Part shown: piece after piece, positions 6,168-27,689 of the stretch
Layout: each line of letters starts with the position of its first letter
Position numbering within the stretch: position 1 is the first letter of the stretch
Assembly: GCA_037968755.1 (NCBI GenBank)
Contig: JBBKWB010000020.1
Location: 2,228 to 66,227, forward strand
From: Woeseia sp.
Lineage (GTDB): Bacteria; Pseudomonadota; Gammaproteobacteria; Steroidobacterales; Woeseiaceae
Length of the DNA: 64,000 bases
Direction of reading: 5' to 3'
Translations under genes and position numbers: made by a program
The notes under the pieces: generated by a model
Database searches by the model: none
What the model was told of the DNA's origin: nothing
What the model saw: only the letters and a program-made list of their open reading frames with translations

Positions 6168-7251
6168 GCTCTGCGCCGTCCGCGCAATTCTTGTGATGCT
6201 CATTGTGGCGGGGATAGCGCTGGCCTCTCCGGCGTTTGGCACAAGTGCTGATGACGGCCACGCCGCTATTCTTATTTATCACCACGTCAGCGAGGATACG
6301 CCGGCGGCAACGTCGGTCAGCCCGGCCATTTTTGAATCTCATCTCGATTTTCTCGAGAGGAACGACTACAACGTTGTGCCACTCACGGATATCGTCTCCG
6401 CACTGCGGGACAAGCGGAGACTCCCAAAGCGCACGGTCGCCATCACCTTCGACGACGGCTACACATCGATTCTGTCCGAAGCCATGCCGCGCATTGCGAA
6501 ACGGAACTGGCCGTTCACGGTCTTTGTTTCGACCGATGCAATTGACCAGCGCTATTCAGGCTTCATGAGTTGGGCGGACTTGCGACGCATTGAAGCAAGC
6601 GGCGGCACTATCGCCAATCACACGCGGACGCACGACCACCTCGTCCGCCACCGGTCCGGCAAGTCTGTCGAAGCGTGGCGGCAACGCATTACGACAGACA
6701 TCGAATCAGCACAGACGAGACTCGAGAGTGAACTTGATCACCCCCTGCATTTTTTTGCCTGGCCGTACGGTGAGTTCGACGCTGACCTCGAGAAACTTGT
6801 CGACGAACTCGGCTACGTTGCCTTCGGCCAGCAGTCGGGACCGGCCGGCCATGTATCCAGCCTGCAAAGCCTGCCTCGCTTTCCCATGGCGACCGGTTTT
6901 GCAGACCTTGAGGGTTTCGCCGAAAAGCTGCGGAGTCGCCCGCTGCCCGTGACCGTACTGGCGCCCGCGAGCCGTGTGCTGAGCACTCTCGCACAGCCAC
7001 CGGAATTAAAGATGCGTATTCCCGACGGGCCGTACCGGCTTTCTGCACTGCGCTGCTACGTGGCCGGTCAGGAACCGGCAGTGATTGAACGGCGCGGTGA
7101 TGTCGTCACGGTGCAGGCGCAAAAACCACTGCGACCTGGGCGTGGCAAGTTCAACTGCACGGCCCCGTCGTCCGAGGAAAGCGGCGTGTACTACTGGTAC
7201 AGCCACCTGTGGATCCAGCCCGAAGACGACGGTTCCTGGTACCCGGAGTGA
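6154..7251 (+). CDS. polysaccharide deacetylase family protein (NodB fold)
   Basis: Signal peptide. NodB motifs ITFDDGY and NHTRTHDH. 14-nt overlap with the upstream gene. Confidence 0.8.
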   Translation: MKVTELCAVRAILVMLIVAGIALASPAFGTSADDGHAAILIYHHVSEDTPAATSVSPAIFESHLDFLERNDYNVVPLTDIVSALRDKRRLPKRTVAITFDDGYTSILSEAMPRIAKRNWPFTVFVSTDAIDQRYSGFMSWADLRRIEASGGTIANHTRTHDHLVRHRSGKSVEAWRQRITTDIESAQTRLESELDHPLHFFAWPYGEFDADLEKLVDELGYVAFGQQSGPAGHVSSLQSLPRFPMATGFADLEGFAEKLRSRPLPVTVLAPASRVLSTLAQPPELKMRIPDGPYRLSALRCYVAGQEPAVIERRGDVVTVQAQKPLRPGRGKFNCTAPSSEESGVYYWYSHLWIQPEDDGSWYPE

Positions 7252-7314
7252 TGCGTCAATCCCGCGTGCGAATGCAGGTATGCACGACGCGACGCCTGCA
7301 ATCGTAACTTCAGA

Positions 7315-8580
7315 TCATGCCAACCCGTTGGCTACATCCGCTTTGTATTCATCCAGCACTTCCGTCATCAGCTGAATATCGCTCTCAAACGTTTCGGGTA
7401 GCAAAGGCCCGAAACTGAACCTGAACATGTCCATGTACGGACTAACGTAACTTGGGTCCTTTGAATGCGGTCTGCCCATATCGCAATCCCGGCCCGCCAG
7501 AATCGCCGCGCCTCGCTGGTACAGGCGTTTGTTCAGGTCATCGCAGTTCAATCCATCCGGCAACTGCATCCAGTGATAAAAGCCGCCGTTGCCGCTGAAA
7601 ACTTTCAGGCCCATTTTCTCAAACGCCTCACCGTAGCGTTGTCGCTGCCAGTTGTAGTGCGCTTCAACAGCCTTCCGCTGCTTTGCCACCCGCTCCGGCT
7701 TGAACAGCTCTACGGCGTATAGCTGGCTGGGATGCGATACCCCTCCCATGCCGAACGAGCTGAAATTAGACAGGGTCTGGATGTTCTTTTTCGATGCGAT
7801 GATCCAGCCAATGCGAATACCCGGGCATTGCAGGCCCTTGGTACACGCGCCGGAAAGAAACACGTTGGAGTTGTCCAGGTCACTGACGTACTGCAGGCCG
7901 CTGACCGACGGCGAGTGATACATCTCATAGGCTTCATCCAGCAGTATGCCGTTCTGCGCTGACTCTGCCATCTGCACGAGCTCCTTCAATTCATCGCCTG
8001 CGCGCGCGTGCCCGGTGGGGTTGCCTGGATTGGAAATCACCGGAAACAGGTTCGTCTTGTGATTCAGGCCCGTGCGATCGAAGTACTCGGCATTTTCAGG
8101 ATGAAAATTATTTTCCGGCGTCATTGCGACTGTTTTCCAGTCGATGTTTGTTTGGGTAAGAATATCCAGGTACGCCGGCCACTCGACATTGCCGATACGA
8201 ACCTGGATGTCTTTTTTCAGGAAAGAAAGAACGGTGTAGATACCCGGCCGGCCACCGGCAAAGATCATCACGTTGTCGGGCGTAATGTTCGAGCCGTAGT
8301 ACGTGTTGTAGTAACCAACGATAGCTTCCCGCAGCTGCGGATGACCCCAGGCTTTCGGATAGAGCCGGTCTTCCCACGTCACCTCAACTGAGGGTGGCAG
8401 TTCAGGCCCGTCGAATTTTTCCAACGGCGTGGTCAATGGAAACCCCTGCGACCATGGATGCGTGCCCTCGGTGCCCATGAACTGCCCATACGCGTCTTTG
8501 AACGCATAAAGAGTTTCGTAAATTCCCATGGGTGGGACGTCGTCGAGGAGGAACGAATCTGTTTTTTTTGTTGGTGTCAT
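7315..8580 (-). CDS. PLP-dependent aminotransferase, class I/II
   Basis: SNPGNPTG and SGACTKGLQCPGIRIGW (Lys) motifs. The longest ORF reaches 8640, but Met21 (ATG at 8580) is preferred because a repeat element starts at 8651. Confidence 0.75.
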   Translation of the reverse strand: MTPTKKTDSFLLDDVPPMGIYETLYAFKDAYGQFMGTEGTHPWSQGFPLTTPLEKFDGPELPPSVEVTWEDRLYPKAWGHPQLREAIVGYYNTYYGSNITPDNVMIFAGGRPGIYTVLSFLKKDIQVRIGNVEWPAYLDILTQTNIDWKTVAMTPENNFHPENAEYFDRTGLNHKTNLFPVISNPGNPTGHARAGDELKELVQMAESAQNGILLDEAYEMYHSPSVSGLQYVSDLDNSNVFLSGACTKGLQCPGIRIGWIIASKKNIQTLSNFSSFGMGGVSHPSQLYAVELFKPERVAKQRKAVEAHYNWQRQRYGEAFEKMGLKVFSGNGGFYHWMQLPDGLNCDDLNKRLYQRGAAILAGRDCDMGRPHSKDPSYVSPYMDMFRFSFGPLLPETFESDIQLMTEVLDEYKADVANGLA

Positions 8581-8650
8581 GCTCTGTCCGTTTGATCTGT
8601 GTGGTCGATCGCCGACCTTGTGCTGGCCCGGCATCCACATTATCAGCGGT

Positions 8651-8886
8651 AAATGGGGTCAGAGTACATTCTTGGTCGGCCAACCCATAAATGGGGTCAG
8701 AGTAGTATGTCGGGCGGGCGACGCGGTTCGGCCGAACGCATTCGGCGAGTCACTGGAACTCAAGCTGCATCGACTCGGGCGGGCGACGGTAGAGGTGACG
8801 CGGTGATGCACGACCAGCTTGCTAGATAATGTACTCTGACCCCTTTTCCCCGACCGGCTTGCTGAAAAATGTACTCTGACCCCTTA
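8651..8886. repeat. GGGGTCAGAGTAC-type MITE-like element with doubled terminal inverted repeats
   Basis: AAATGGGGTCAGAGTA occurs at 8651 and 8689. Its reverse complement AATGTACTCTGACCCCTT occurs at 8828 and 8868. Internal direct repeat CGGGCGGGCGACG at 8711 and 8776. Confidence 0.75.
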
Positions 8887-8908
8887 ATTGGCAGGTATCC
8901 TTGGGCGT

Positions 8909-9955
8909 ATGCCTTCCACTCCAAGACGGACAGCGGAATTCCAACACGAGTATCGTTGGGCAGAGTACGACGACGAGGCGCTGCTGGATCTGCGCTTCAA
9001 GAGCCTCGGACTGACGCTTAAAGGCAGTCCATTGATGGCGGATATCGAGCGGCTCTACGAGAATCTCGAACGCCGCGGCCTGGAGTTCCGGCCACACGTC
9101 TGGCTTTCGACCGAGTGGTTTTCGCCGGACCGCATCTCCGGCTTTGCCATTCCCTTCTATCTCGCCCACCCGCGATTGAACCAACTCGAGCGGCGCATGA
9201 TGGGTGAAGTTGAAGGCGGGGCGCACAGATGGCGCCAGCGAATCCTGCGCCACGAAACCGGGCATGCGATTGACAATGCCTACAGGCTCAGGCGACGCGC
9301 GGACTTCAGGCGCATATTCGGCCGCGCCTCCGCACCGTATCCCGATGACTATTCACCGCGCCCGAGCAGCCGCCGACACGTACTGCATCTCGGGCACTGG
9401 TATGCACAAAGCCATCCGACCGAAGACTTCGCTGAGACTTTTGCCGTCTGGTTGCAGCCAAAAGCGCGCTGGCGACGTGACTACGCCGACTGGCCGGCAA
9501 TCAAAAAGCTCGAGTATGTCGATGAGCTGATGGGCGAGATCGCGACGGCCACGCCGAAGCGCAGCGACCGCTCGGTGATCGAACCCTTGCGACAGACCGA
9601 CGAAACGCTGGGCGAACATTACCTGCTCAAACAGGATCGTTACGGCGGCGAGGACCGGCGCTACGACCGCTGGATGAGCCGGGTATTCGTGGCGCGCACG
9701 AAACGACCGCGAGCGATGGCTGCCAGCCGCTTCGTGCGCGAGATCGAGCCGCAGCTTCGACGACTCCTGGAGCGACGCGCGCGCCTGCACCCCTATTATC
9801 TCGATCACGCAATCAGCCTCGTCAGGCGTCGTTCGCGTCAGCTCGATCTCGTGCTGCGCAGTTCCCGCCGCGAGGCCAAACGACCCGTCGTGCGCCTGCA
9901 TGAGCGGATCGTCCTGGATATCCTGCGACGCAACAGGGAGAACTATGCACTATGA
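8909..9955 (+). CDS. putative zinc metallopeptidase (HExxH), ATP-grasp-associated type
   Basis: HETGH zinc-binding motif. The ORF opens at TTG 8888 inside the repeat; the first ATG is at 8909. ATGA stop/start overlap with the downstream ATP-grasp gene. Confidence 0.6.
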   Translation: MPSTPRRTAEFQHEYRWAEYDDEALLDLRFKSLGLTLKGSPLMADIERLYENLERRGLEFRPHVWLSTEWFSPDRISGFAIPFYLAHPRLNQLERRMMGEVEGGAHRWRQRILRHETGHAIDNAYRLRRRADFRRIFGRASAPYPDDYSPRPSSRRHVLHLGHWYAQSHPTEDFAETFAVWLQPKARWRRDYADWPAIKKLEYVDELMGEIATATPKRSDRSVIEPLRQTDETLGEHYLLKQDRYGGEDRRYDRWMSRVFVARTKRPRAMAASRFVREIEPQLRRLLERRARLHPYYLDHAISLVRRRSRQLDLVLRSSRREAKRPVVRLHERIVLDILRRNRENYAL

Positions 9956-10989
9956 AACGCTACCGCATACTGCTCATGGTGCACGAGCAACTCGTTCCTC
10001 CAAAAGACATCGAAGGACTGAGTGAGAAGGAAATAGATGCTTTCAGAAGCGAGTACAACGTCTACTCGACATTGTGCAATCTCGGTTACGACGTACGCGT
10101 CGTCGGCATCCTGGATCGCTTGTCCGAGCTGCGCGACATTGTGAGGAACTGGAAGCCACACGTCGTCTTTAACATGCTGGACGAGTTTCACGGCATCCCA
10201 GCCTACGAGCAGTATGTCGTCGCCTACCTTGAGATGATTCGCCAGCGCTACACCGGCTGCAATCCACGCGGCCTGTTGCTGTCGCGGGACAAGGTATTGA
10301 CGAAGCAGGTGCTGGCCGCGCACCGCATTGCAACTCCTGCCTTTCACCTGTTTCCGTATGGCGCCCGGTTCAAGGCACCGAGAAAAGGCAAGCTCGAGTT
10401 TCCGCTGTTTGTAAAGTCGGCAACCGAAGATGCGTCGCTGGGCATTGCGCAGGCGTCGATTGTTGACGATATGAACAAGCTTCGCGAACGCGTGGAGTTT
10501 ATTCATGAGAATGTGCAAAGCGATGCATTGGTGGAAGAATACATTGACGGGCGCGAACTCTACATTGGCGTGCTGGGCAACACGCGATTGACAACCCTGC
10601 CGATCTGGGAACTTGACTTCGGCACGCTGGCCGAGAAGCAATCCGGCATCGCGACTCGAAGGGTCAAATGGGACCGCAGCTACCAGGAGAAGCACGGCAT
10701 CAAGACCGGACTTGCCGAAGGCTTGTCAAAAGCGGATACCGACAAACTTGCCCGTCTCGCAAAGCGCATCTTCCGGTCGCTGCACATGTGCGGCTTCGCT
10801 CGCCTGGATTTGCGTATGCGAAAAGACGGCAAGGTTTTTCTGCTGGAGGCCAACGCCAACCCGGATCTAACTCATGGTGAAGATCTGGCGGAGTCGGCTG
10901 CGTCGATCGGGATTAGCTACGACAAGCTGATCTCACGCATCGTCAATCTTGGCATTTCGTATATGCCGGAGTGGCGGTTGTATGAGTGA
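9952..10989 (+). CDS. ATP-grasp ligase of the D-alanine--D-alanine ligase family
   Basis: Motifs FPLFVKSATEDASLGI, EEYIDGRELYIGVLG and ARLDLRMRKDGKVFLLEANANP. Translationally coupled to the upstream peptidase gene. Confidence 0.8.
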   Translation: MKRYRILLMVHEQLVPPKDIEGLSEKEIDAFRSEYNVYSTLCNLGYDVRVVGILDRLSELRDIVRNWKPHVVFNMLDEFHGIPAYEQYVVAYLEMIRQRYTGCNPRGLLLSRDKVLTKQVLAAHRIATPAFHLFPYGARFKAPRKGKLEFPLFVKSATEDASLGIAQASIVDDMNKLRERVEFIHENVQSDALVEEYIDGRELYIGVLGNTRLTTLPIWELDFGTLAEKQSGIATRRVKWDRSYQEKHGIKTGLAEGLSKADTDKLARLAKRIFRSLHMCGFARLDLRMRKDGKVFLLEANANPDLTHGEDLAESAASIGISYDKLISRIVNLGISYMPEWRLYE

Positions 10990-11030
10990 GGTAGTGATTC
11001 CTGATCGAGAAGCACCTTGCGAGGAGCTCA

Positions 11031-11068
11031 GGGGTCAGAGAACATTTCTCAAAAAGTACTCTGACCCC
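11031..11068. repeat. single GGGGTCAGAG(A/T)AC hairpin unit of the same repeat family
   Basis: GGGGTCAGAGAAC, 12-nt loop, GTACTCTGACCCC. 13-bp stem with one mismatch. Confidence 0.75.
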
Positions 11069-11084
11069 AGCATCGCCGGTATCG

Positions 11085-11122
11085 TTTCGTACATGCCGGA
11101 GTGGCGGCTGTATGAATGATGT
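11085..11122 (+). repeat. orphan second copy of the last 38 nt (11 codons plus stop) of the ATP-grasp CDS
   Basis: 34/38 identical to 10955-10992. It still reads SYMPEWRLYE-stop in frame, and the three differences inside codons are synonymous. Confidence 0.8.
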
Positions 11123-11288
11123 GACTATCTCCGCGAGCTGAGCGCTCAACGAAACTAACTTTCTCGAATGAAGAGACTATTGAAAGGGCCTCAAGAGGCA
11201 GCGGAACGATGGCCGACTGATCGGGGGAACTCCACTTCGCCGAAAACCGAATGCTTGGCCCCCTCGGGGCATCAGCCTTGGTTACCTG

Positions 11289-11882
11289 TCAGCCTTCGTC
11301 GTAATGCCGCACCCGATAGTTTATTTGCGCATAGTCGACATCAGGGCGCGATGAGAGTTCGTCGGCCAGTATCCTGGCTATGCTGTCAAAATCGGGCGCG
11401 ACCTCGACGCGCCCATCTCCGCGCATCGTACCTGTTGTGGGTAGTCGATCATCATTGACCGTACGCGCAAGAAAGCGGCTTAGATCACCGCCCGGATCGC
11501 TATCAATGTTGATAACGACGACCTTTTTTTCGTCGTCAACATGCACCTCATCAATTTGCACCGACTCACGGCAGCGATCCGCGATTATGCGAAGCGTTTG
11601 CTCGACCTGAAGTTCGACGATAATTTCGCGTCCTGACGTCAGTCTCGAATACACGAATGGTACTCCGAGCTCTGCCGATAGAGTCGCTACATCCCGGCTT
11701 AGCGTTTCGGCGACGACAGCATCGTCGATTGCGCGCACGACAATGCCGGCCATCGCATGACGATCTGAGAATTTAACGATGATCTCAGGTCCGTCGTTGC
11801 CGGTGCCGCGTCGATCTGCATAGGTACAGCTGAGCACAAGTACGCAGGTCATAGTGAGCAGACTTTTGGCGAAATTCCGCAT
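11289..11882 (-). CDS. lipoprotein resembling a free-standing subtilase propeptide (inhibitor I9-like)
   Basis: Start set at Met35 (MRNFAKSLLTMTCVLVLSC, lipobox). EIIVKFSD and RPDVDYAQINYRVRHY parallel GQIIVKYKT and QPDVEYAQLNYVAHI in the propeptide of the adjacent S8 protease. Lies 2 nt after the exosortase stop. Confidence 0.5.
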   Translation of the reverse strand: MRNFAKSLLTMTCVLVLSCTYADRRGTGNDGPEIIVKFSDRHAMAGIVVRAIDDAVVAETLSRDVATLSAELGVPFVYSRLTSGREIIVELQVEQTLRIIADRCRESVQIDEVHVDDEKKVVVINIDSDPGGDLSRFLARTVNDDRLPTTGTMRGDGRVEVAPDFDSIARILADELSSRPDVDYAQINYRVRHYDEG

Positions 11883-11884
11883 CG

Positions 11885-12403
11885 TCAAGGTCGCGCTTTC
11901 AGGCGCACTGGATTCACGGCTCTCGCAATCCAGTAGCCGGCAATCAGTGCTGTCGCGGCGATGACGACACCCTGACCCAACCACTCGTGTGAGACCACAA
12001 AATATCCCGGTGCGACAACACCAATCGAGAACAATGCGATGACACGCAGCAAATTGATCAGCGTCAGCAATACCGCACCACTCAGTAGACCGAGCACTCG
12101 AGTACGTCGCCGCAGCGGTATGCCGAACGTCATCACGGCGCCCAGAAAAACGACCGGTAATATCGGCGTACAGCCATGGCTAACAGCTGCACGAAACCCG
12201 CCTGCATGTGTCAGCAAGACCCCGTCGACTACAACTGGCATCCCTAGCGCATTTAGTGCGAAGGCAGCGACACGTGCCGTGATCTCCTGCAGAGGAAGGA
12301 CCAAGCCGCGCAAGGCGGTCGATCGTTCGAATGCGATGGCGACCCCGACGGAGAGAAGCAAGGCTGCCGCCAGGCGCAAGTGCCTTGAGTCTATCCGAAT
12401 CAT
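11885..12403 (-). CDS. mini exosortase/archaeosortase-family transpeptidase (XrtH-like size)
   Basis: 172 aa, polytopic. Ordered Cys (VSHGCTPI), Arg (NLLRV) and His (SHEWLG) match the exosortase catalytic arrangement. GAGGAA Shine-Dalgarno sequence upstream. Confidence 0.65.
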   Translation of the reverse strand: MIRIDSRHLRLAAALLLSVGVAIAFERSTALRGLVLPLQEITARVAAFALNALGMPVVVDGVLLTHAGGFRAAVSHGCTPILPVVFLGAVMTFGIPLRRRTRVLGLLSGAVLLTLINLLRVIALFSIGVVAPGYFVVSHEWLGQGVVIAATALIAGYWIARAVNPVRLKARP

Positions 12404-12415
12404 TTCCTCATCCCG

Positions 12416-14296
12416 TCACCTTCGTGCAACGCCGAGTCGTCTGAAACCGAAAAAGCCGATCAGCAGCGCGAGCATAAGCGCTGCGACAATCCCCATTGCG
12501 GGTACCACGCGGACGTCGACATTAACGGTCATTGTTTGCGTCTGACCCGGAATACTGACGGCAAGTTCCGTATCGCCTCGAGTGCCTGCCGATACCTGCA
12601 CCTGTACCTGGCCCATGCTATTTGTAACGGCTGATGCGGGCGATATCGTCGCTACGGCGTCATCGCTGGAGCGCAAACGGACAGTGATACCGTCGGCCGG
12701 GGCGCCGCCAAGCGTAACATTGACGTTGAGTGTCGCCGATTCCCCTTCGTCCAACTCAAACTCCGTGGGATTTACACTGATTGCCAACGTCGCTGGCGGT
12801 GTGCTTCCGCTGGCGTTGATATCTGCATTCAGCAGACCAGCGCCACACGGCAGCGGACACTGGGTGTTACTACGTGGAATGGCGTTGCTGACAATAAGAT
12901 TCTCGACCGCCTGCGGCGTAAGGCCTGGGTCTTGCGCCAGCAAGAGCGCTGCGACGCCGGCGACATGCGGAGCCGCCATCGACGTACCGTTGTAGTATGC
13001 GTAACCGCCATTGACCATGCTCAGGACGCCGTCCGGATTGCCGTCGTTGTCGTCGTCCGCGGTAACGTCTCCACCAGGCGCCATGATATCGACGACATTG
13101 CCGAAATTGGAGTAGCGGCGCACCAGCTCACCGTTGAAGTCGCTTGCGGCTACGGTAATAACATTGTTGCAGCTGGCTGGAAACGAGTTCTGCGCGTCGC
13201 TGGCCTCATTGCCGGCGGCAACGACGACGGTAACACCCGCGGCGACGACGTCATCGATCGCGGCTTGTGTCGATGGCGATGCGGAGCACGGTGCCCCTGC
13301 GCCGAGACTCATGTTGATTACCTTGGCCGGGTGCTGATTCTGCGGCGTGCCGGGCACGGCCAGGCCCGCCGACCAGCGAATGGCGTCGTTGATATCAGCA
13401 ATGCTTCCGCCGCATCGGCCGAGCGCACGCAACGGCACGACACGACTGTTCCAATTTACGCCGGCAATGCCGGCGCCATTATCCGTGCGACCGACGCCCA
13501 CCGTTCCGGCAACGTGGGTGCCATGCCAGCTATCCGGCGATGGCCGCGAACCCGGGCCGCAATCACCGGGGCCTACGGCATCGCCAGAATCCGTCGGATC
13601 ATTGTCTCTGCCGTCGCCATCGTTGGCTGTGAAGTTGTCGGTGATCATGTCAAAACCGTCCAGCAAGTTTTGCGAACCGGTGATGTCGGGATGATTCGGC
13701 AGGATGCCCGTATCAATCACAGCGACCACGGACGTAGTAGCACCGGTCGTACGGTCCCATGCGTCAGGCAAGTTGATACCGCCGGGCGATTCGTCATTGC
13801 CGTTGCCGTTGTTGCGATAGTGCCACTGTTGAGGATAGCCCGGATCGTTTGGTATGCGCACAATGTGCGCGACGTAGTTCAATTGCGCGTACTCGACATC
13901 CGGCTGACCCTGCATGCGTTCGACCGCCGATTCGGCCTGCTCTGACATGTTTCGCACGGACATCGAGCGACTACGCGCTGGCGACAGCGCGTAGATGTAC
14001 TCACCACCACCGGTAACACGCAGGTGCTCTGAAAATCCCATCGTGCCGAGGCGCGGGTCATCGCCGCGTGGCGTTGTTTTGTATTTGACGATGATCTGCC
14101 CTGGTACCCACCGCAAAGCGTCTGTTGCGACTAATGCATCGGACACATCGACGCCGCTTTGGATGTCGATCCCATCGTCCTGCGCGAAACTCCTGGTGCC
14201 GGGCGCGACGAAAAGAACGATCGCAAGCCCCACAACTCCTGATCCTGCAATTCGATTGCTCATTTTGCTCCTCCAGGTAAAGTGACTGATCTGCAC
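12416..14296 (-). CDS. secreted subtilisin-like serine protease (S8) with Ig-like domain and C-terminal exosortase-type sorting tail
   Basis: Triad motifs VAVIDTGI, HGTHVAGT and GTSMAAPHVAG. N-terminal signal plus propeptide. The C-terminus VPAMGIVAALMLALLIGFFGFRRLGVARR is motif, TM helix and Arg cluster. Confidence 0.9.
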   Translation of the reverse strand: MQISHFTWRSKMSNRIAGSGVVGLAIVLFVAPGTRSFAQDDGIDIQSGVDVSDALVATDALRWVPGQIIVKYKTTPRGDDPRLGTMGFSEHLRVTGGGEYIYALSPARSRSMSVRNMSEQAESAVERMQGQPDVEYAQLNYVAHIVRIPNDPGYPQQWHYRNNGNGNDESPGGINLPDAWDRTTGATTSVVAVIDTGILPNHPDITGSQNLLDGFDMITDNFTANDGDGRDNDPTDSGDAVGPGDCGPGSRPSPDSWHGTHVAGTVGVGRTDNGAGIAGVNWNSRVVPLRALGRCGGSIADINDAIRWSAGLAVPGTPQNQHPAKVINMSLGAGAPCSASPSTQAAIDDVVAAGVTVVVAAGNEASDAQNSFPASCNNVITVAASDFNGELVRRYSNFGNVVDIMAPGGDVTADDDNDGNPDGVLSMVNGGYAYYNGTSMAAPHVAGVAALLLAQDPGLTPQAVENLIVSNAIPRSNTQCPLPCGAGLLNADINASGSTPPATLAISVNPTEFELDEGESATLNVNVTLGGAPADGITVRLRSSDDAVATISPASAVTNSMGQVQVQVSAGTRGDTELAVSIPGQTQTMTVNVDVRVVPAMGIVAALMLALLIGFFGFRRLGVARR

Positions 14297-14308
14297 AAAC
14301 CTCGATTG

Positions 14309-15529
14309 TCAAAACTCCTTGCGCAGACCAAGTGCAATACCGTTGGTATCAAGAAAGCGATGGGCTGCTATGCCGCGGTACTCGAGCATAAACTGCCAGC
14401 CGTTTTGCACAATAAATGTTGTGCTGACATTGAATTCAAGAAAGTCGCGATCAGGAACTTCCGTTTGATATGAGAATCGCTGCGACCGGCTATCTTCTAC
14501 AAAACTGGCGTCAATGCTACGCTGGTCCTGATCAGTCTCATGCCGGTACAGAATATTTTGCTCAAATAGTACGACACCAAACCGTGTGCTGATTGCGGCT
14601 GAGCCCGCTAACCCTGCCGAAAACTGGCTTGACGTTTCCTCGTTATCAAAAAACGTAAGTGCTAGCCCGCTATCGTCGACCTCGTTGTACGTGTCGTAGC
14701 CGATTTCGCTCCAGTCGTAGGCCATGCGCGGCCCAAGCGTGACATTGTCCCAGACCCAGTCGTAGGAAAACTTGATGCCGGCCAGTATCTGCCCCGCGTT
14801 GAAGTCAGCCGTTGGTGCGCCGACGCGTGTGAACACGTCTCCAGTGTCAATGGTTTCGGTAAAAGTCGCCCGCCGGGTACGCTCGTTGGTGTGGTCGGCA
14901 TAGCCAGCATAAAAGTCGACGGCGCCGTTGTCGCCGAGCAGATAGGCGCCGTAAAAGGTAAGACCGATGGTCGTGTTTTCGAAATCGCCGCCATCAGTGA
15001 AATCACCGTCTTGCGTTGCGCCATCAACAGCGGCGCCCAGCAACCACCGGCCGCCGGCGATGACGTCGAAGCCTGCCGCGACACGCAGAACATCCGATGC
15101 ATAGCCGTCCTCGAAAGGCGACGGAATACGTTTGACTGCATCATGACCGACGGTGAAGAACAAACCGCGTTGCGGCGAAGATGCTGGATCCATCGGATCC
15201 TCTTTTTCCAGCCGAGCATCGACAGCGGCCGGTGCGGAGGGCGGCGTTGCGGCAAAACCGCCGCCAACCGACGAGGGTGGCACGCCTCCCATGTTGGTCG
15301 GGCGGCTACAGATCTCCGATAGTCCAGCCGTGCCAAGCACGGACACCGGGTCACCGGATAACAGTACAGCGCACGGCGTCTGGCTTTCATCGGCCGCGAG
15401 TTGCGTGACAACCGCCGTGTTCAGGTTCTGCGCATTGACCGCTGTAAACATTGTGAGCAGGCAAGCACCTGCCGCTATCATTCTCCGCAACGCTTTGTCT
15501 AGCAAACGCATAAGTGTGTTCATTTCCAT
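14309..15529 (-). CDS. outer-membrane beta-barrel protein (autotransporter-barrel-like, short passenger)
   Basis: Signal peptide ending TAVNAQ. Alternating amphipathic strands. C-terminal LGLRKEF ends in an aromatic residue. Start set at an ATG (15529 or 15523) rather than GTG 15550. Confidence 0.6.
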   Translation of the reverse strand: MEMNTLMRLLDKALRRMIAAGACLLTMFTAVNAQNLNTAVVTQLAADESQTPCAVLLSGDPVSVLGTAGLSEICSRPTNMGGVPPSSVGGGFAATPPSAPAAVDARLEKEDPMDPASSPQRGLFFTVGHDAVKRIPSPFEDGYASDVLRVAAGFDVIAGGRWLLGAAVDGATQDGDFTDGGDFENTTIGLTFYGAYLLGDNGAVDFYAGYADHTNERTRRATFTETIDTGDVFTRVGAPTADFNAGQILAGIKFSYDWVWDNVTLGPRMAYDWSEIGYDTYNEVDDSGLALTFFDNEETSSQFSAGLAGSAAISTRFGVVLFEQNILYRHETDQDQRSIDASFVEDSRSQRFSYQTEVPDRDFLEFNVSTTFIVQNGWQFMLEYRGIAAHRFLDTNGIALGLRKEF

Positions 15530-15546
15530 TGCTCCTGTAATCGTGA

Positions 15547-17271
15547 TCACCGCGGCACAAGGAAAAACTCGCCGAACTCGTGACCTGCGAGATTGATTGG
15601 TGCGTAGACCGGAACCTGTTCAAACCGGTCGCGGTCGAATGCGGCCTGAGCGACGTTCGAACGAATCTGCAATAGCAATTGCTGGCCATCGATGACCCCG
15701 CTATTCGAGCGCAGGGCATCGATAAGCGCATTCGCAAATACAGAATGACCGCCGCGTCCGCTGTCGAGCACGGGCATCAGCCCGCCCGATGTCAATGCCG
15801 TGCGCGAGCGCCTCTTGTTCAACGCGATGAAGTCCGCGGTAAGTTGCGCTGGCGTCTGCCCGGAGCGCAGCGTGGTTGCAGTAGTGCGCGTCAGCGACCC
15901 GGAATAGCAGGAATCAGCGATAACCAGAATGTGGCGAGCAGCCATGATGTTGAGTTGATCGGTCAGTGACGTATTCGAAATCCAGTTACTGCTGTCGTCG
16001 GGCGCCGCGTCGACCGGCAGCCAGTGACCACGATCATTTTTCTCATCAAGCGTGCCGTGACCGGCGTAATAGATCAGCAGGTTGTCGTTGTCCGTTAGGT
16101 TCTTGCGAAGGTCATTGAGTTCTCGCATGATCTCGCCGCGATCAGCGTTTTCCAGATGCCTGACATTGAAGCCGTAGCGCTCACGCAGGACCTCGGCGAC
16201 AACACGCGCGTCTTTGACCGCGCTGACGAGCGGGTTCATATTCTGGTAGTCGTTGATGCCGATCACGAGTGCGTGGAATCTGCCGAGCTCGGCACCAATT
16301 TGCTGTGGATCTCGGCCGTCGGGCTGCAGCACGAACACTCGCTGACCACGTCTCCCAAGCTCGTCAACAGCGACCACCGACACTCTCGACCCTTCCTCCC
16401 TGACCGGAACGCGCGTCTGAAACAGACCGTTGGGTTCGAACACCACCGCCGTGTCGTTAACGGTGATCGCGCGTAGCTGGGAGCTTGCCCGGACTTTGCC
16501 AATGATCAGACGTTCCGTTACGGCGGAGGCAACCGTCGCCACCGCGACGCCTCTCGTTTGCGGCACTTGCGGATCAATCATGTCGATGACGGGCCCGTCC
16601 GCGTCGCTGCTGGCATCCGGTAGTGATGCGGGTTGCAATCCCGGTGTTTCCTGCAATGCCGGCAGGCCTGCCGCCTCCCGATACCAGGTCAGGGCTTTTT
16701 CTCGATCGGCCGGTACCCCACGGCCGGTCTCATACAACTTGCCAAGATTAAACTGTGCCGATGCGTTTCCCTGTTGCGCAGCAAGCTCGTACCAGTGCGC
16801 AGCAACGCCGAAGTCCGGATCAGTGCCGAGACCTTTTTCGAAGATCTCTCCGATGGTGTTTTGTGCCACTGCATCGCCCTGCTGTGCGCGCGAAAGCCAT
16901 ACCTCTTTTGCCGTTTGCAGATTGGCCCGGTCGTATTCTACGTATTCACCGCCACGAATCGCGCAGTCGCCCGCCGTAAGCCGCGCCGGTCGTCGAGGTC
17001 CAATAAATGAAAACCGGTTGCCGATTCGCTTGTGCTGACCAGGTAGCAAGCAATCGACGACCAACATTTCGTCAAAAGACGATTGCGCTGGCTGGGCCTG
17101 GCAGAGTGTCGGAACGATGAGCGCGAATAGCGTCAGCGTCGAGACCGTTCCGAGGAGACGAGCCCCGATCAGGGACAATAGGCCGGATCGCCGGGACCCG
17201 GTGTTCGGTCGTATGGTGCGCACCGTAATGCCCTCCACTGACAACCTGCAAATCCGCTGCATCGATACCAT
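15547..17271 (-). CDS. exported Sel1-repeat / caspase-like (peptidase C14) protein
   Basis: Signal-like N-terminus. Sel1 repeats (AQQGDAVAQNTIGEIFEKG, AAQQGNASAQFNLGKLYETG). Caspase dyad YYAGHG and ADSCYSG. Confidence 0.85.
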   Translation of the reverse strand: MVSMQRICRLSVEGITVRTIRPNTGSRRSGLLSLIGARLLGTVSTLTLFALIVPTLCQAQPAQSSFDEMLVVDCLLPGQHKRIGNRFSFIGPRRPARLTAGDCAIRGGEYVEYDRANLQTAKEVWLSRAQQGDAVAQNTIGEIFEKGLGTDPDFGVAAHWYELAAQQGNASAQFNLGKLYETGRGVPADREKALTWYREAAGLPALQETPGLQPASLPDASSDADGPVIDMIDPQVPQTRGVAVATVASAVTERLIIGKVRASSQLRAITVNDTAVVFEPNGLFQTRVPVREEGSRVSVVAVDELGRRGQRVFVLQPDGRDPQQIGAELGRFHALVIGINDYQNMNPLVSAVKDARVVAEVLRERYGFNVRHLENADRGEIMRELNDLRKNLTDNDNLLIYYAGHGTLDEKNDRGHWLPVDAAPDDSSNWISNTSLTDQLNIMAARHILVIADSCYSGSLTRTTATTLRSGQTPAQLTADFIALNKRRSRTALTSGGLMPVLDSGRGGHSVFANALIDALRSNSGVIDGQQLLLQIRSNVAQAAFDRDRFEQVPVYAPINLAGHEFGEFFLVPR

Positions 17272-17584
17272 CGAACTAAGGTCAGCGGATTTCAGGAAAC
17301 CTAGTAAATTTAGTCTGCTCTCCTCTTAAAGCGTGATTCTTGGTCGAATTCCATCAGACCTAAGCGATTCCGCCTCCGTAGTAGTGGGAAAATTCGACGC
17401 TGTCTGTGCGTCCGTGCTGCCGAGCGAGAAATCCCCAAGCGTTGCGATACTGTCGGGGGCTGCATCCGGATCAGTCTGGGTGTGAAAGTCTAGTCCTTTG
17501 TGCGAGGTATGCCAAATATGGTCACGTGCTGCCACCGGTTTCGCTATAATCGCACCTAGCCCAAAGTAGCCATCGACTTCCCCA

Positions 17585-19225
17585 ATGCGACAGTTGCAAC
17601 GAATATTGATCGCTTGTGTGCTCACACTGGGCGCCTGGTCGGCCGGACCAGCGGACGAGCGCGGTGTTGCCGCCTCCGCGTCGCCGGAATTGACAGCACC
17701 CGGCCGCCTTGTGCTGGCGGTTATCGGTATTGATGACTACCGGCATTGGCAACATCTGGACAATGCCGTCAGTGATGCCGTTGGCTTTCAAAATGCGTTG
17801 GTCGAGAAAGCGGGATTCGCCGTGCCGATCGAGCCCCTGTTAAATGAAGATGCCACGAAGTCGGCGATCATGGAATTCATTCAGGACAAACTGCATGGTG
17901 AGTTGCTGGCTGACGATCAGCTGGTCCTGTTTTTTGCAGGGCATGGTCAGACTCGCGAAACTAACCTCGGTGATATCAAGCGGGAGTCGGGTTACCTCGT
18001 TCCGGTCGATGCACCCGCCGCTGGTGCAGGCGAACGATGGAGTGCCTACATTCCTATCGATGAATTTCTGCGTGCCGTCGACGAGCTGCCAGCGCGGCAC
18101 ATTCTGGTTGTTCTCGACGCATGCCATAGTGGTTTTGCTCTCGGCGATGCGGTCGACAAGATGCGCGGTGTTGACGAGTATCGCGATGTTTTGGCGAGCA
18201 AGATCAGTCGGCGTGCTATTACCTCGGCTCGCAAAGACCAGCTCGCGTCGGACAGTGGCCCGCTTCCAAACCATTCGTTGTTTACAGGGTCATTTGTGGA
18301 TGGGCTAACATGGGGCAAGATCGATATCGATGGCAATGGCCTGGTAACATCGTCGGAAATTGGTTTGTACCTGCGGCAAGTTGTCGGACAGGAAAGCAAT
18401 TCAGCACAAACACCAGACTTCGGCGCATTCGGTTTCGATGATCGAGGCGAACTTACAATATCGCTGAACAACCAGAGTTTCAGTGCGCTTATTGCGCGTT
18501 CAATGAACGCGCTCGATCATGGACGCCATGAGCAACTGGCGGCACTCAGCAATGAAATGTCAGCGACAAAACCCGACAATCCGACGACGCTTTATTTTCG
18601 CTACCGTCTGGCATTGTTGAATGGCAATATCGAAGATGCTATGGACGCTATCGATGCGCTGACCGAGACGCCGTTCGCCGCGGGTGAAATTCCGCTGACC
18701 GAAGTCGATGTACGGGACCTGCAGGTTCAGCTGCCGTACTGGAAGTCGGTTCTCGAGCTACCGGATCGCGGTAATGGCTTCGTTGATATTGGCGTAGAAC
18801 TTAAGTCGGGTGAAATTGTGTCGGCGGAGAGTCGAGGAGATGTGCAGGCCTTTCCCGTGCCCATCAACGACGAGTTTCGATTGCGCATCAAGAATAAAAC
18901 GAACCTCCCGCAATTCGTGTCGTTGCTGCTGATCTCCGAGACTGGCCACATAAGAACCGTACGGTTGTGGGAGCAGTTACAGCGCCACTTCGGCGGCATG
19001 CAGGAAGGTGAGACTGTTCTGTCGGTTCCCCTCCAGAAATACAGCGTGACGGGTATAGAAGAACTGCGTTTTATCGTTGCGCCGGCGCCGATCGAGGAAT
19101 TGTTGTTGCCGCTGGACACAAAGTCCAGGGGTGTCAGCAGGATTCGGGAGGAAAGCCTTGAGGTCATCGCGGACTCTCACCAAACGGTCGTTCGATTGGT
19201 GAGTTCTCACGACATTGCGAACTAA
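17585..19225 (+). CDS. exported caspase-like (C14) protein with DUF4384-like C-terminal domain
   Basis: Signal peptide MRQLQRILIACVLTLGAWSA. Dyad FFAGHG and LDACHSG. The C-terminal segment FPVPINDEFRLRIKNKTNLPQFVSLLLISETG is DUF4384-like. Confidence 0.85.
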   Translation: MRQLQRILIACVLTLGAWSAGPADERGVAASASPELTAPGRLVLAVIGIDDYRHWQHLDNAVSDAVGFQNALVEKAGFAVPIEPLLNEDATKSAIMEFIQDKLHGELLADDQLVLFFAGHGQTRETNLGDIKRESGYLVPVDAPAAGAGERWSAYIPIDEFLRAVDELPARHILVVLDACHSGFALGDAVDKMRGVDEYRDVLASKISRRAITSARKDQLASDSGPLPNHSLFTGSFVDGLTWGKIDIDGNGLVTSSEIGLYLRQVVGQESNSAQTPDFGAFGFDDRGELTISLNNQSFSALIARSMNALDHGRHEQLAALSNEMSATKPDNPTTLYFRYRLALLNGNIEDAMDAIDALTETPFAAGEIPLTEVDVRDLQVQLPYWKSVLELPDRGNGFVDIGVELKSGEIVSAESRGDVQAFPVPINDEFRLRIKNKTNLPQFVSLLLISETGHIRTVRLWEQLQRHFGGMQEGETVLSVPLQKYSVTGIEELRFIVAPAPIEELLLPLDTKSRGVSRIREESLEVIADSHQTVVRLVSSHDIAN

Positions 19226-19294
19226 CGTCGCCTTGCAGCGGTAGCGACCGGCGACGGTCAGCAGTGCTACATTGATCCGCATAAAGTCATTCTT

Positions 19295-19379
19295 GCCCTA
19301 ACCCGGGGCTCTTCCTGCGCTGGCATTCTGATCGGTGTGGCGCGGAAATGTTCCAATGAAAAACAACAACGCTCGCTCG
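19295..19379 (+). repeat. orphan copy of the leader plus first 8 codons of the 21817 gene
   Basis: About 68% ungapped identity over 81 nt with 21756-21838, including the identical 13-mer GGCATTCTGATCG. Encodes MKNNNARS versus MKSNNARS. Similarity stops at the CHAT gene stop codon (19380). Confidence 0.6.
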
Positions 19380-21620
19380 CTAGTGACCACCAACACCTGG
19401 ATCGCCACTGAGCGTAAAGGCCGCCCAGAAATAGGGATGCGGATACTGTTCGCGAACGTAACGCTGTGCCGCAGCCAGCGCCGCTGTTTTCGATTGACCG
19501 GATCGGAGTTGACGATAAAATTCAATCATTAACGCGCTCGTCGCCGCATCGTCGACTGGCCACAGGCTCGCAATTACAGAGTCGGCGCCCGCGGACAAAA
19601 ATGCACGGCTCAGGCCGACGACATCTTCGCCGGCACTCAGCTTACCCATCTGTGAATCGCACGCACTCAACACAATGAGCTCAACGCTTTCCAGCCGCAT
19701 GGAATAGATCTCATGCACTTCCAGCGAACCGTCCGCGCGGCGATCGCGGCCTAACAAAATGCGGGAGAACAGTGGTTTGACGGGATTAAGCTCTCCATGT
19801 GCGGCGATGTGAATGATGTCGGCGCCAGTCGCTCTGTCAACGAAGGCACTTTCCGTTGCCTGTGGGCCAAGAATAGCTTCGACGCCGTAAAGATCGGCGA
19901 TGGCCTGTGCTTCGGCATCAGCATGATCAAGTCTGTCAAACCCTTCAACCTCGGCCTGCGACATGACCAATATCTGCCCCCCAATGTGCAATGACGGTTT
20001 GAGATGAACACGTACACTTGCGGCAGGAAGATACGAGATCGTAAATCGGTCCGCGAGGTAGCCGTCGCCATCGGTCAGCGACGCGAATGACAGGTAGTTG
20101 AGCGCACGATGCGGCACGATGATCAGATTGCCTTCAGCGACACCACTTTCCAGTGGGGCAAACAACTTGCCATACAAATCGGTAAGGCTCTGTCGGAGTG
20201 GCGGTCCAACGGCATTGTTCGCAGCGGTGATACCACGAGCGCTCGAGCCTGCGAGCTGATCCAACCGCGAAACCATGTCCTGTATTTCGAGGTATCCGGC
20301 GTCGAGAACCACGACATTCAGTGATGAATTGTCGACGATGAAGGCGAAGGTTTCATCGACTGAAACGAAGTAGCTAATCAAAGTCGTCCCATCCGGCAGC
20401 GTCGCCTGCAAGTCTGCGAGCGATGCAACAGCGACGCTACTCAAGCTGGATGCGGCGACATCATCGCCGAGGTTCTCCCGGCTGCTGTCGCGGCTGCGCT
20501 CAAGACTGCTGATCTCTTCGCGCAATGATCGCGCGCGATCGTCACCCTCACGGGCTTCCTCTCGCTGTAGATCACGTTGCAATTCCAGCAATTGCCAGTT
20601 CAGGCTTTCAACGCGGCTAAGCTCGAACGCCGTGCGATTATTCGTCCGTGTAGCGCCGAGCTGATCTATAAATATACGCGCGCGGGATCGCTCGCTGTAT
20701 AAAAACGCTTTCTCGATTTCACCTTGATGCACGGCTGCCGTAACCGCACCAATGTATGCCGGTCCCGATACAGTCGGGGCAGACAGACGAAAGACTTCAG
20801 GCTCACCGGCGGAGACCACGGCTTCCTGTATCTCGATGGCCTCTTCAAACACCACAAGTGCTTCGTCGTAACGTTCTTGTGCTAGGTAGACGCTCCCGAT
20901 GCCCACTAACGGTAGCAACGACCAGGTCGGAATCGGCAGGCGACGCGCTCGCACGAGAGCATCTTCATAAGTGGCGAGCGCCAGATCGTAATTTTTCTGT
21001 TCTTGGTAAACGTTGCCCTTGGCGGCAATGACGCCGGCGCGCGCTCCGGAATCTAGCAGCGCAGAGCCAAGTGCTCGGTCGTAAGCTTCGATGGCATCTT
21101 CATTGTGTCCTTCGGCCACCAACACGCTGCCCATATTCGCAAACAGGGTCGGGGCGGCGGCAGCATAATAAGTTGTGCCCCTAAGTACCTCATGTGCTTC
21201 CAAATACTGTTTGGCGGCAGCTTCGTTGTTTCGCATTAAAAAGTGGGTATTGCCAATTTTCTGCAGCAATACCGCGTAGTTGTCCTTGGCGCCAATCTGT
21301 CTGGCGAATTCTGCGGCATCTTCGTAATACGTCCGCGCGCGCTCAGGCTGACCGAGGGCCGCATAGGTATCGCCAATCAAGCCGACTGCAACAGCCTCGT
21401 TAAACAGATCTTTCTCGCGTTGCAGAGTTTCGCGGGCGCTCAACAATTCAAGCAAGCCTAAGCGGTACCGCCCGGACGTGACGTAGCCGATACCGCGCTG
21501 CATCTGGGGGTACCAGTCTGGCGTATTTCCGCTGACGCGGCTGCTACGTTCGTACTGAATCGAGCATGCCGTCAGAACAAGCGTAAGAATTGCCAGCCAC
21601 ATTGGAAGAGCGTTGCGCAT
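19380..21620 (-). CDS. TPR-repeat CHAT-domain lipoprotein
   Basis: Lipobox LVLTAC. TPR-like repeats over about 300 aa. CHAT dyad IIHIAAHG and LSACDS, followed by SLWPVDD. Confidence 0.85.
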   Translation of the reverse strand: MRNALPMWLAILTLVLTACSIQYERSSRVSGNTPDWYPQMQRGIGYVTSGRYRLGLLELLSARETLQREKDLFNEAVAVGLIGDTYAALGQPERARTYYEDAAEFARQIGAKDNYAVLLQKIGNTHFLMRNNEAAAKQYLEAHEVLRGTTYYAAAAPTLFANMGSVLVAEGHNEDAIEAYDRALGSALLDSGARAGVIAAKGNVYQEQKNYDLALATYEDALVRARRLPIPTWSLLPLVGIGSVYLAQERYDEALVVFEEAIEIQEAVVSAGEPEVFRLSAPTVSGPAYIGAVTAAVHQGEIEKAFLYSERSRARIFIDQLGATRTNNRTAFELSRVESLNWQLLELQRDLQREEAREGDDRARSLREEISSLERSRDSSRENLGDDVAASSLSSVAVASLADLQATLPDGTTLISYFVSVDETFAFIVDNSSLNVVVLDAGYLEIQDMVSRLDQLAGSSARGITAANNAVGPPLRQSLTDLYGKLFAPLESGVAEGNLIIVPHRALNYLSFASLTDGDGYLADRFTISYLPAASVRVHLKPSLHIGGQILVMSQAEVEGFDRLDHADAEAQAIADLYGVEAILGPQATESAFVDRATGADIIHIAAHGELNPVKPLFSRILLGRDRRADGSLEVHEIYSMRLESVELIVLSACDSQMGKLSAGEDVVGLSRAFLSAGADSVIASLWPVDDAATSALMIEFYRQLRSGQSKTAALAAAQRYVREQYPHPYFWAAFTLSGDPGVGGH

Positions 21621-21755
21621 GCGCCCAAAACCTCGGTGGTCGTCTCACCTGATTATGCCAGACCGGGGATCTGCTGGCAGGAACAACGAGTACAGTGGCG
21701 GCGGCGGCCCCAGCGGCGGCGGCCGGTGCTAGAATAAGCTATACACGGTTTATTC

Positions 21756-21816
21756 GCCCTGCCCTGGGACCGCTCCCTTGCGGGCATTCTGATCGTTCAG
21801 ATGCAGGAGCATTCCG
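21756..21816 (+). promoter_or_regulatory. conserved upstream leader shared with 19295-19355
   Basis: Paralogous with the orphan copy. Lies in the divergent intergenic region between the CHAT gene (minus) and the 21817 gene (plus). Confidence 0.4.
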
Positions 21817-22824
21817 ATGAAAAGTAACAATGCCCGGTCGCCGATAGTAGCGCGCGCGGTAGCTTTTTTGTTACCCGCACTTTTAATTCCGTGGGTTGCC
21901 GCCGCGGCGGAAGTTGGTAGTGGCGGTGTCATTATTCGGGTTGACGACGGCTTGTCGCAGGAATTTTGTGTCGATGGCAGCAGCGATCAAATTTGGCTGC
22001 ACCTGCGCCGATTCATCGCGCGCAGGGACAGCAATGTATTCAAAGCTGACTCCAGCATTGGAATGGTTATTGACACCACGATTACAGGCGACATCGGGCG
22101 GCAAAAAGACAAGATCAATTTTCCGATCGTCTTCCAGGCCACAGTACGCAGCTACCAAAAAGGCCTGGTCTCAATTCCTATCGAGAAAGGCATCTTGTCA
22201 GGCTTTGCGTTGAGATCCGGCGACACTCGCTACACGCAGGTCGACTTCTCGTTTCGGTTTCTGAAAGTGCAGGAAGATACGACCATCAGTCGTGCGATCA
22301 AGTCTATTGCCGGTATCACGGAGGCCTTCAATATTCCAGCAGAATTGTTTGGTGGTTCATTTCAGATGTACGCATCCGTCGCATCGTCGTTGATCGACAA
22401 TGTGTTCACCGACAACCGTTACAGCACTAAGGATCCGCTGGCATCCATTGTCCTGGCGTTCGATCCTACCGGACAGTGTGACAATTTATTGTTCGAGAAA
22501 ACTGGTACCAAGGCAGTCATCTTGAGCGCGGGTGGTGACGAAAAAGATGGCATCGTCAGTATCGATACGATCAACGGCTACTGTTTTGCCGCAGAGCTGC
22601 GGCCGGCTTTCGAATTGTGGTTCTGGAACCGGGTCGGTGGAATTTGCGAGGCCCGGCCCGCTGATGCGAAGCAGCTGCGCAATCCTTATTTCGGTTTCTA
22701 CGTGACTGCGACTCCGACCGATAATGCAGCGCCAACGCGTGGTGCACGCGATCAAAGCATGTTGAGCCTGTGCGCCGCGCATGGGCTAACGGATCCGATG
22801 CAATGCGGCGGCATCAGCGAATAG
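21817..22824 (+). CDS. hypothetical exported protein (no family recognised)
   Basis: 335-aa ORF with signal peptide AFLLPALLIPWVAAAAEV. Its 3' end overlaps the start of the downstream CHAT gene. Confidence 0.5.
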   Translation: MKSNNARSPIVARAVAFLLPALLIPWVAAAAEVGSGGVIIRVDDGLSQEFCVDGSSDQIWLHLRRFIARRDSNVFKADSSIGMVIDTTITGDIGRQKDKINFPIVFQATVRSYQKGLVSIPIEKGILSGFALRSGDTRYTQVDFSFRFLKVQEDTTISRAIKSIAGITEAFNIPAELFGGSFQMYASVASSLIDNVFTDNRYSTKDPLASIVLAFDPTGQCDNLLFEKTGTKAVILSAGGDEKDGIVSIDTINGYCFAAELRPAFELWFWNRVGGICEARPADAKQLRNPYFGFYVTATPTDNAAPTRGARDQSMLSLCAAHGLTDPMQCGGISE

Positions 22825-25484: not shown

Positions 25485-25511
25485 CACCATGCGACACGAC
25501 AGGGGTTAGCG

Positions 25512-27650: not shown

Positions 27651-27689
27651 TTCGAAATATGGCGGTTCTTCAACACTACCAATCGATGC

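Follow-up and report, generated by a model that had tools for sequence, protein, structure and literature searches.

Do five tightly packed genes of a Woeseia sp. form a single protease system, or do they belong to two systems that happen to be neighbors? The question is raised by the minus strand of a 64-kb stretch of contig JBBKWB010000020.1 (hereafter, the window), where genes encoding a caspase-like protein (A), an outer-membrane barrel (B), an S8 subtilase (C), an exosortase (D) and a small protein resembling a subtilase prodomain (E) follow one another. A first-pass annotation of this DNA had read the five genes as one surface-anchored protease cascade or zymogen-activation module. Comparison with related loci argues that they are probably two independent modules that lie side by side on the same strand: an S8-exosortase-E cassette and a caspase-barrel pair that belongs to a caspase/CHAT island. 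The five open reading frames (ORFs) themselves were all found where they had been annotated, with the domains assigned to them. The genes and the parts of C considered below are as follows.

15547-17271, minus strand: A, exported protein with Sel1 repeats and a C14 caspase-like domain (module 1)
14309-15523, minus strand: B, outer-membrane barrel of the type Va autotransporter type with an N-terminal 'passenger' of about 85 residues (module 1)
12416-14263, minus strand: C, secreted S8 subtilase precursor with signal peptide, prodomain, catalytic domain, Ig-like domain and sorting tail (module 2)
13859-14110, minus strand: prodomain of C, N-terminal in the S8 protein, QIIVKY through PDVEYAQLNYVAHIV
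12419-12508, minus strand: predicted sorting signal of C, a VP-x-x-G motif followed by a membrane helix and an Arg cluster
11885-12403, minus strand: D, XrtH-like mini-exosortase that may act as sorting transpeptidase on the S8 tail (module 2)
11289-11882, minus strand: E, exported prodomain mimic, a lipoprotein in the window clade; putative inhibitor or chaperone that acts in trans on the S8 protease (module 2)

The spacing of the genes depends on the choice of start codons. The longest ORFs of B and C are 14309-15529 and 12416-14296, respectively. The likelier start of B is the ATG at 15523, 8 nucleotides (nt) past AGGAG, and that of C is the ATG at 14263, 5 nt past GGAGGA; these starts agree with independent gene calls of 404 residues (P0273) and 615 residues (P0003). 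The gaps had been given as 17, 12, 12 and 2 nt. The last two (C-D, 12 nt; D-E, 2 nt) stand, and the A-B and B-C gaps become 23 and 45 nt. A scan of the region gave no terminator-like or promoter-like site between the five genes; the six terminator-like matches in the region, where 6.6 were expected by chance, were all intragenic. With all five genes on one strand, no gap above 45 nt and no predicted terminator, co-transcription of all five in the Woeseia window is plausible, and read-through transcription may cross the 45-nt B-C junction.

Gene order in other genomes separates the two gene sets. We inspected six S8 orthologs of 50-70% identity located on long contigs (L002, L004, L006, L007, L008 and L009). 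In each of these loci the S8 gene was followed by a gene encoding a 174-203 residue Exosortase_EpsH protein, and in five of them (L002, L004, L006, L007 and L009) the exosortase gene was followed by one encoding a 190-224 residue protein with no Pfam match, which is E. In L008, from a Methylomirabilales metagenome-assembled genome (MAG), the E gene lies upstream of the S8 gene and is divergently transcribed. The genes upstream of S8 varied in every long-contig locus (META, Tricorn-like, PALP, CorA and others) and in no case was one of them a caspase or barrel gene. With a four-sequence E alignment as the query, a scan of GTDB genomes, one for each species, gave 19 further true loci from Woeseiaceae, Pseudomonadales, Burkholderiales, Acidiferrobacteraceae, Chromatiaceae, Competibacteraceae, Rubrivivax, Gemmatimonadales and a delta-proteobacterium. 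In all 19 the E gene adjoins that of an S8 ortholog of 50-64% identity, and by iterated profile search the exosortase gene lies between the two in most. Three other matches of the scan (L029-L031) were discarded, the E motif having matched ordinary S8 prodomains. An E homolog was therefore found beside S8 in 25 of 25 informative loci, and the S8 protease, mini-exosortase and prodomain-like protein that the first-pass annotation had recognized form a real and widely conserved unit.

Neither partner of module 1 accompanies this unit. A profile search of flanks of up to 10 kb on each side found no C14 or autotransporter barrel protein near the S8 cassette at any of the 25 informative loci. Conversely, an S8 protein of the C family, an exosortase or E was seen at none of 18 barrel loci. 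The first-pass annotation had held that its single system would fall if the five genes were never neighbors elsewhere, and in the sampled loci they never were: the five occurred together at none of the 43 related loci (25 S8-cassette and 18 barrel). In the closest available relative (sample SRR25569769) one contig carries a caspase gene 85% identical to A, then the barrel gene (66%) and then another caspase gene, and a different contig carries the S8 gene (82% identity) followed by the exosortase gene (67%). The modules also lie on separate contigs with different neighbors in ERR11809032 (L003 and L036). Nothing in the comparative data gave evidence of the caspase and the subtilase acting on each other.

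What, then, does the S8 cassette encode? Protein C is a bona fide S8 peptidase: its match to PF00082 (185.6 bits, E-value 1.6e-54) was above the cut-off and the catalytic motifs DTG184, HGTH247 and GTSMA426 (615-residue numbering) are present. A Big_1 match fell below the cut-off, and a Fervidolysin_NPro-like match was weak, with no single stretch passing alone. Homolog searches showed C to belong to a large family with members of about 610 residues. Among solved structures the catalytic domains nearest to that of C are 7w2a, 5yl7 and AprV2/BprV, and the mature chains of the solved homologs start at residue 137-138 of the 615-residue protein, directly past the prodomain. The catalytic domain of C resembles those of AprV2, AprB2 and BprV of Dichelobacter nodosus and of Pro21717 of Pseudoalteromonas (PDB 3lpa, 3lpc, 3ti7 and 5yl7) with E-values of 1e-69 to 1e-77, and it is their mature N-termini that map directly past the C prodomain. 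The deposited chains (339-357 residues) consist of the catalytic domain only, and this chain-level comparison shows neither an exosortase tail nor a partner gene.

The C-terminus of the S8 protein, VVPAMGIVAALMLALLIGFFGFRRLGVARR, is the only one of its type among the ORFs of the window. A hydrophobic membrane helix and a basic C-terminal tail were present in 118 of the 120 top S8 homologs. The motif preceding the helix differs by clade: VVPGIG is found near the window, VPDLS is the commonest form, VPTLG or VPLLPLWG occurs in a few proteins and ALSWWY was also seen. The only NCBIfam match of the tail was to IPTL-CTERM (TIGR04174), at 13.4 bits with a cut-off of 20.5, and orthologous tails gave no more than 15 bits. 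The S8 tails of L009 and L011 also gave weak matches (about 15 bits) to the NCBIfam model 'midcut-by-XrtH' (NF033207), to which E gave none; that family is thought to bear an XrtH site in the middle of the protein.

Protein D belongs to the exosortase superfamily, scoring 26.3 bits with TIGR04178 (cut-off 23) and 44.8 bits with PF09721 (Exosortase_EpsH; cut-off 25.7). Its best NCBIfam model was XrtH (TIGR04177), at 55.5 bits, below the cut-off of 86. XrtH was the top model for all 23 cassette exosortases, with scores that ranged from 55.5 bits in the window to 91.2 bits in L008. The cassette orthologs of D scored 78-85 bits, and only the protein of L008 (10001-12427) exceeded 86. Residues C78, N117, R120 and H139 are invariant across the 23 proteins, which thus retain the conserved Cys, Arg and His residues of exosortases. 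A word-indexed homolog search with the exosortase gave only one relative, and the S8 and E proteins were used as probes instead.

The tail and the enzyme are distributed together. An exosortase was present in 22 of 23 loci with a tail-bearing S8 protein and in none of the three with a tail-less one (Fisher p = 0.0015, with no correction for phylogeny; one loss event may underlie all three tail-less loci). The three tail-less orthologs (L017, L021 and L026) lack the exosortase and keep E. These S8 proteins are 772-779 residues long and have a different C-terminal extension ending in CETTPG, and E directly follows S8.

Dedicated sorting systems, in which the enzyme is encoded beside a single target, are an established pattern described by Haft and colleagues, and S8 proteases are recurrent carriers of C-terminal sorting tails (PMC3237569). 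As in the dedicated sortase, exosortase and rhombosortase systems (PMC3237569), the enzyme gene lies beside that of one protein with a motif, a helix and a basic cluster, and tail and enzyme co-occur; the present cassette differs in having an XrtH-like mini-exosortase, a VP-x-x-G or VPDLS-like motif rather than PEP or GlyGly, and a third conserved gene, E. The resemblance to XrtH/IPTL-CTERM systems is found in the size of the enzymes (about 170 residues) and in some of the orthologous tails, those with VPTLG or VPLLPLWG. XrtH systems have been described with several targets per genome, whereas the window cassette has one adjacent protease plus a prodomain mimic. Non-protease carriers of the signal do exist, as a Methylomirabilis S-layer protein bears IPTL-CTERM (PMC8671808), and therefore the enzyme of the L008 lineage may serve an S-layer protein as well as the S8 protease.

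Protein E has a signal peptide and an LVLSC lipobox, although the lipobox is missing from the distant orthologs of L008 and L009. It gave no family match in Pfam (E-value cut-off of 0.01) or NCBIfam. The first-pass annotation had called E an I9-propeptide-like lipoprotein: the lipobox and a C-terminal likeness to prodomains are borne out, whereas a Pfam I9 match (PF05922 or PF22148) is absent from E, and the L006 ortholog gave a faint PF22148 match. By BLASTP the E segment RPDVDYAQINY aligns with QPDVEYAQLNY of the S8 prodomain. A profile of 26 E proteins matched the N-terminal prodomain of every S8 ortholog, with about 100 residues covered in several, and an hhalign comparison of the E family with the S8 prodomain family gave a probability of 99.1 (E-value 9e-19) confined to the last 28 columns. 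In the E alignment the position at which the mature solved homologs start falls on the final two or three residues of E. Given the prodomain alignments and these mature N-termini, E would reproduce the final helix and strand of the prodomain and end at about the processing site. In subtilisins the cleaved prodomain leaves that final segment in the active-site cleft. The secondary structure of an AlphaFold2 (AF2) model of E consists of two beta-alpha-beta-beta-alpha-beta units, at low confidence, and a PDB sequence-profile search with E gave no match.

These similarities indicate that E most likely acts in trans on the S8 protease, as an inhibitor or a chaperone. Moreover, as S8 has kept E after loss of the tail and the exosortase, the partner of E would be the protease. 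Such proteins have precedents. Yeast PBI2 is a free-standing MEROPS I9 inhibitor. A free-standing subtilisin propeptide-like protein potently inhibits Plasmodium SUB1 (PMC6993865). Like these proteins, E is small, separately encoded and similar to the cognate prodomain, and would be expected in the active-site cleft. Unlike them, E is about twice the size of one prodomain, is exported or lipidated, lacks a Pfam I9 match and is always encoded in the cassette of its own protease. One locus of a Rubrivivax MAG (L019, 9149-10558) has an XrtH-like exosortase and an E-like protein in one stop-free frame, within which the E part retains a segment resembling a signal peptide; the joint frame might reflect fusion of the two genes, an error in the sequence or, given the high GC content, a frame left open by chance.

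On the sequence evidence the S8-exosortase-E trio is most aptly viewed as an XrtH-like exosortase system that is dedicated to a subtilase and includes a prodomain mimic as a partner. From its signal peptide, the S8 subtilase would be exported by Sec as a zymogen and its C-terminal helix and Arg cluster would then tether it to the inner membrane. The neighboring XrtH-like Cys/Arg/His exosortase would cut the VP-x-x-G motif and hand the protease towards the cell surface, a step suggested by the gene adjacency, the co-variation of tail and enzyme and the conserved catalytic residues. Exported E may bind the periplasmic protease as a prodomain-like trans inhibitor or folding chaperone, consistent with its C-terminal homology.

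Module 1 belongs to a different setting. Protein A scored 94.2 bits with PF00656 (Peptidase_C14), above the cut-off, and 65 bits with Sel1. Both motifs of the His/Cys dyad, YAGHG (402) and DSCYSG (453), are present, and a signal-like segment lies at the N-terminus. Beyond A lie further genes of the same kinds, on both strands.

17585-19225, plus strand: F, C14 protein
19380-21620, minus strand: G, TPR-CHAT protein
22770-25484, plus strand: I, TPR-CHAT protein
25512-27650, plus strand: J, C14 protein with DUF4384
27690-30422, minus strand: K, C14 protein

Together with the barrel these genes make up a 16-kb island (14309-30422) of four C14 proteins, two TPR-CHAT proteins and the barrel; a profile search found four C14 ORFs in the window. 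All of the island proteins have N-terminal starts resembling those of signal peptides or lipoproteins. A Sel1 plus C14 gene whose product is 60-85% identical to A lies directly upstream of the barrel gene in four of five close relatives (L032-L035). The fifth (L036) has another gene upstream of the barrel; two C14 genes follow the barrel within about 2 kb, and one of these is orthologous (71%) to the second caspase gene of the window. Further C14 and TPR-CHAT genes lie nearby in L032 and L033. As gene content in these relatives (L032, L033 and L036) is similar to that of the window, A and B form the edge of an exported caspase/CHAT island. The signal-like starts of the island proteins suggest that the caspases form a network in the envelope and not in the cytoplasm. 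Prokaryotic caspase homologs of the orthocaspase/metacaspase-like kind (PMC5756287, PMC7475262) resemble A in having a p20-type C14 dyad fused to repeats and in being clustered with caspase/CHAT genes; the window island differs from them in that signal peptides are present throughout and one member is paired with an outer-membrane barrel. PADLOC gave generic caspase, subtilase and TPR matches only, and a known anti-phage defense system was set aside as an explanation of the locus.

Protein B has the C-terminal beta-domain of a type Va autotransporter, which is 12-stranded in solved examples: PF03797 matched with 108.7 bits (E-value 5.5e-31). An AF2 model built from a 19-sequence alignment (predicted local distance difference test score (pLDDT) of 74) consists of a short helical N-terminal domain, a disordered linker and a beta-barrel spanning residues 121-402. 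By Foldseek its closest match was EstA (3kvn, E-value 5.7e-14), and AaaA, EspP, NalP and BrkA also matched. Outer-membrane beta-barrel proteins typically end in an aromatic residue, as does B, the C-terminus of which is FRKEF. Two Cys residues are invariant in the N-terminal domain, which is about 85 residues long. No functional passenger was recognized in B, there being only about 85 conserved residues and the disordered linker ahead of the barrel. Hence, B shares the beta-domain of EstA, NalP, EspP and BrkA by both Pfam and Foldseek and differs from these type Va autotransporters in its N-terminal segment of about 85 residues and in the recurrent presence of a separate exported protease, caspase or S8, as its neighbor.

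This pairing extends to distant barrels. A word-indexed search gave 19 detectable relatives of B, and a metagenome scan gave distant relatives of 33-36% identity. In seven of the distant loci (L037-L041, L045 and L049) a large S8 protein of another family (617-1182 residues, some with DUF4114) is encoded directly upstream of the barrel; in L038 the S8 gene (6475-9996) and the barrel gene (10004-11203) are 7 nt apart. In L044 a Sel1-caspase gene lies directly downstream of the barrel gene, and no adjacent protease was seen at the barrel in L042, L043, L046 and L047. The barrels of L045 and L046 bear AMIN domains. We considered a domain common to the Sel1-caspase and the S8 proteins of the distant barrels as a basis for the pairing, and BLASTP found none. 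Given the loci with an adjacent S8 or Sel1-caspase gene and the caspase pairings of the close relatives, the barrel family tends to adjoin a separately encoded exported protease, and by gene order the predicted partner in the window clade is the upstream caspase. The recurrent pairing suggests that the barrel most likely docks or exports the upstream protease.

Several points weigh against the assignments made above. The S8 protein of L014 has the tail, yet no exosortase is found within 15 kb. The tail of the window protein is non-canonical for IPTL-CTERM (13.4 bits versus 20.5), and as the tail motif varies among clades, its recognition by the exosortase is an assumption. In the alignments a likeness to prodomains is demonstrable for the C-terminal unit of E only. 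The single-sequence AF2 model of E was poor (pLDDT of 57.8), and a Foldseek search with it gave nothing significant, the top matches being non-significant ferredoxin-like tandems. Every homolog comes from uncultured metagenome assemblies. Finally, there may be a lineage-specific functional link among the five genes in this organism, a possibility raised by their tight packing and by the distant barrels that adjoin S8 proteins of another family.

Such a link could take the form of a joint assembly. The B-type barrel, which across lineages recurs directly beside a Sel1-caspase or a large S8 subtilase, would supply the membrane part of a 'split autotransporter' and would dock or export a protease that has its own gene. 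As the barrel lies between the Sel1-caspase and the S8 protease in the window, it could serve both proteases here, such that a split-autotransporter barrel with caspase and S8 would constitute a five-gene surface-protease assembly; separately, the cassette may follow an undescribed scheme of zymogen control, in which E would be a free-standing double prodomain mimic that silences the tail-anchored subtilase until its release by the exosortase. We consider this reading unlikely.

A different role for E, in sorting rather than inhibition, is quite improbable. E might be an adaptor that presents the S8 tail or the acceptor for ligation by the exosortase, a proposal favored by the single stop-free ORF of L019, by the lipoprotein nature of E in the window clade and by the translational coupling of E and the exosortase in the window across a 2-nt gap. 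However, E adjoins S8 in L017, L021 and L026 even though these loci have lost both the tail and the exosortase, the conserved motif of E reproduces the end of the S8 prodomain and nothing in the exosortase, and the distant orthologs of L008 and L009 have no lipobox.

It is very doubtful that the S8 tail is a permanent membrane anchor and that the adjacent exosortase serves substrates elsewhere in the genome. The low IPTL-CTERM score of the tail is in keeping with a plain anchor, our inspection covered 64 kb of the genome, such that other substrates are possible, and the S-layer protein of Methylomirabilis provides a non-protease type of substrate (PMC8671808). Against this, the adjacency is strict over very divergent lineages, the tail and exosortase were lost together, and the layout of motif, helix and basic cluster is typical of sorting signals (PMC3237569).

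The cascade of the first-pass annotation, with cross-processing of caspase and subtilase and surface placement by the barrel and exosortase, is scarcely tenable: its five genes share a strand with gaps of at most 45 nt and no predicted terminator, each product is an exported or a membrane protein and barrel relatives elsewhere pair with S8 proteases, but those S8 proteins come from a different family, are encoded upstream of the barrel and have no exosortase, a caspase gene rather than S8 follows the barrel gene in the closest relative, the modules of ERR11809032 are on separate contigs, and neither set of conserved loci (0 of 25 and 0 of 18) contains the genes of the other.

A hairpin at 11031-11068 (inverted repeat I1, with 17-nt arms that are 88% complementary and a 4-nt loop) separates the convergent E and ATP-grasp genes and is a candidate terminator that would close the transcription unit, although a scan for T-tract terminators did not call it. 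A 38-nt stretch that closes the ATP-grasp gene and includes its stop codon (10955-10992) recurs as an 89% identical copy 130 nt downstream (11085-11122), and the two copies lie on either side of the hairpin. The repeat and hairpin may be a rearrangement scar that borders the cassette. Further out, a putative zinc metallopeptidase gene (8888-9955, plus strand; Peptidase_Mx, 30.8 bits) overlaps the ATP-grasp gene (9952-10989, plus strand) by 4 nt. The latter encodes a D-Ala-D-Ala-ligase-like protein that scored below every Ddl equivalog cut-off compared, and the two genes look like a coupled peptide-ligase/peptidase pair.

Our searches found no description of the exosortase-subtilase cassette or the caspase-autotransporter pair in the searchable literature, or of either module in NCBIfam, Pfam or PADLOC. 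Both modules are variants of well-known kinds. Their separation removes a false lead, a cascade in which a caspase activates a subtilase, which was probably an accident of gene order. What takes its place in the window is a three-gene cassette that is spread over Proteobacteria, Gemmatimonadota and Methylomirabilota and whose S8 and E proteins are captured by no curated NCBIfam or Pfam model. The mini-passenger autotransporter barrels that lie beside separate exported proteases are a recurrent pairing worth a systematic survey. With a single enzyme, a protease substrate that is easy to assay and a candidate inhibitor, the cassette offers a tractable model of the action of an exosortase on its substrate.

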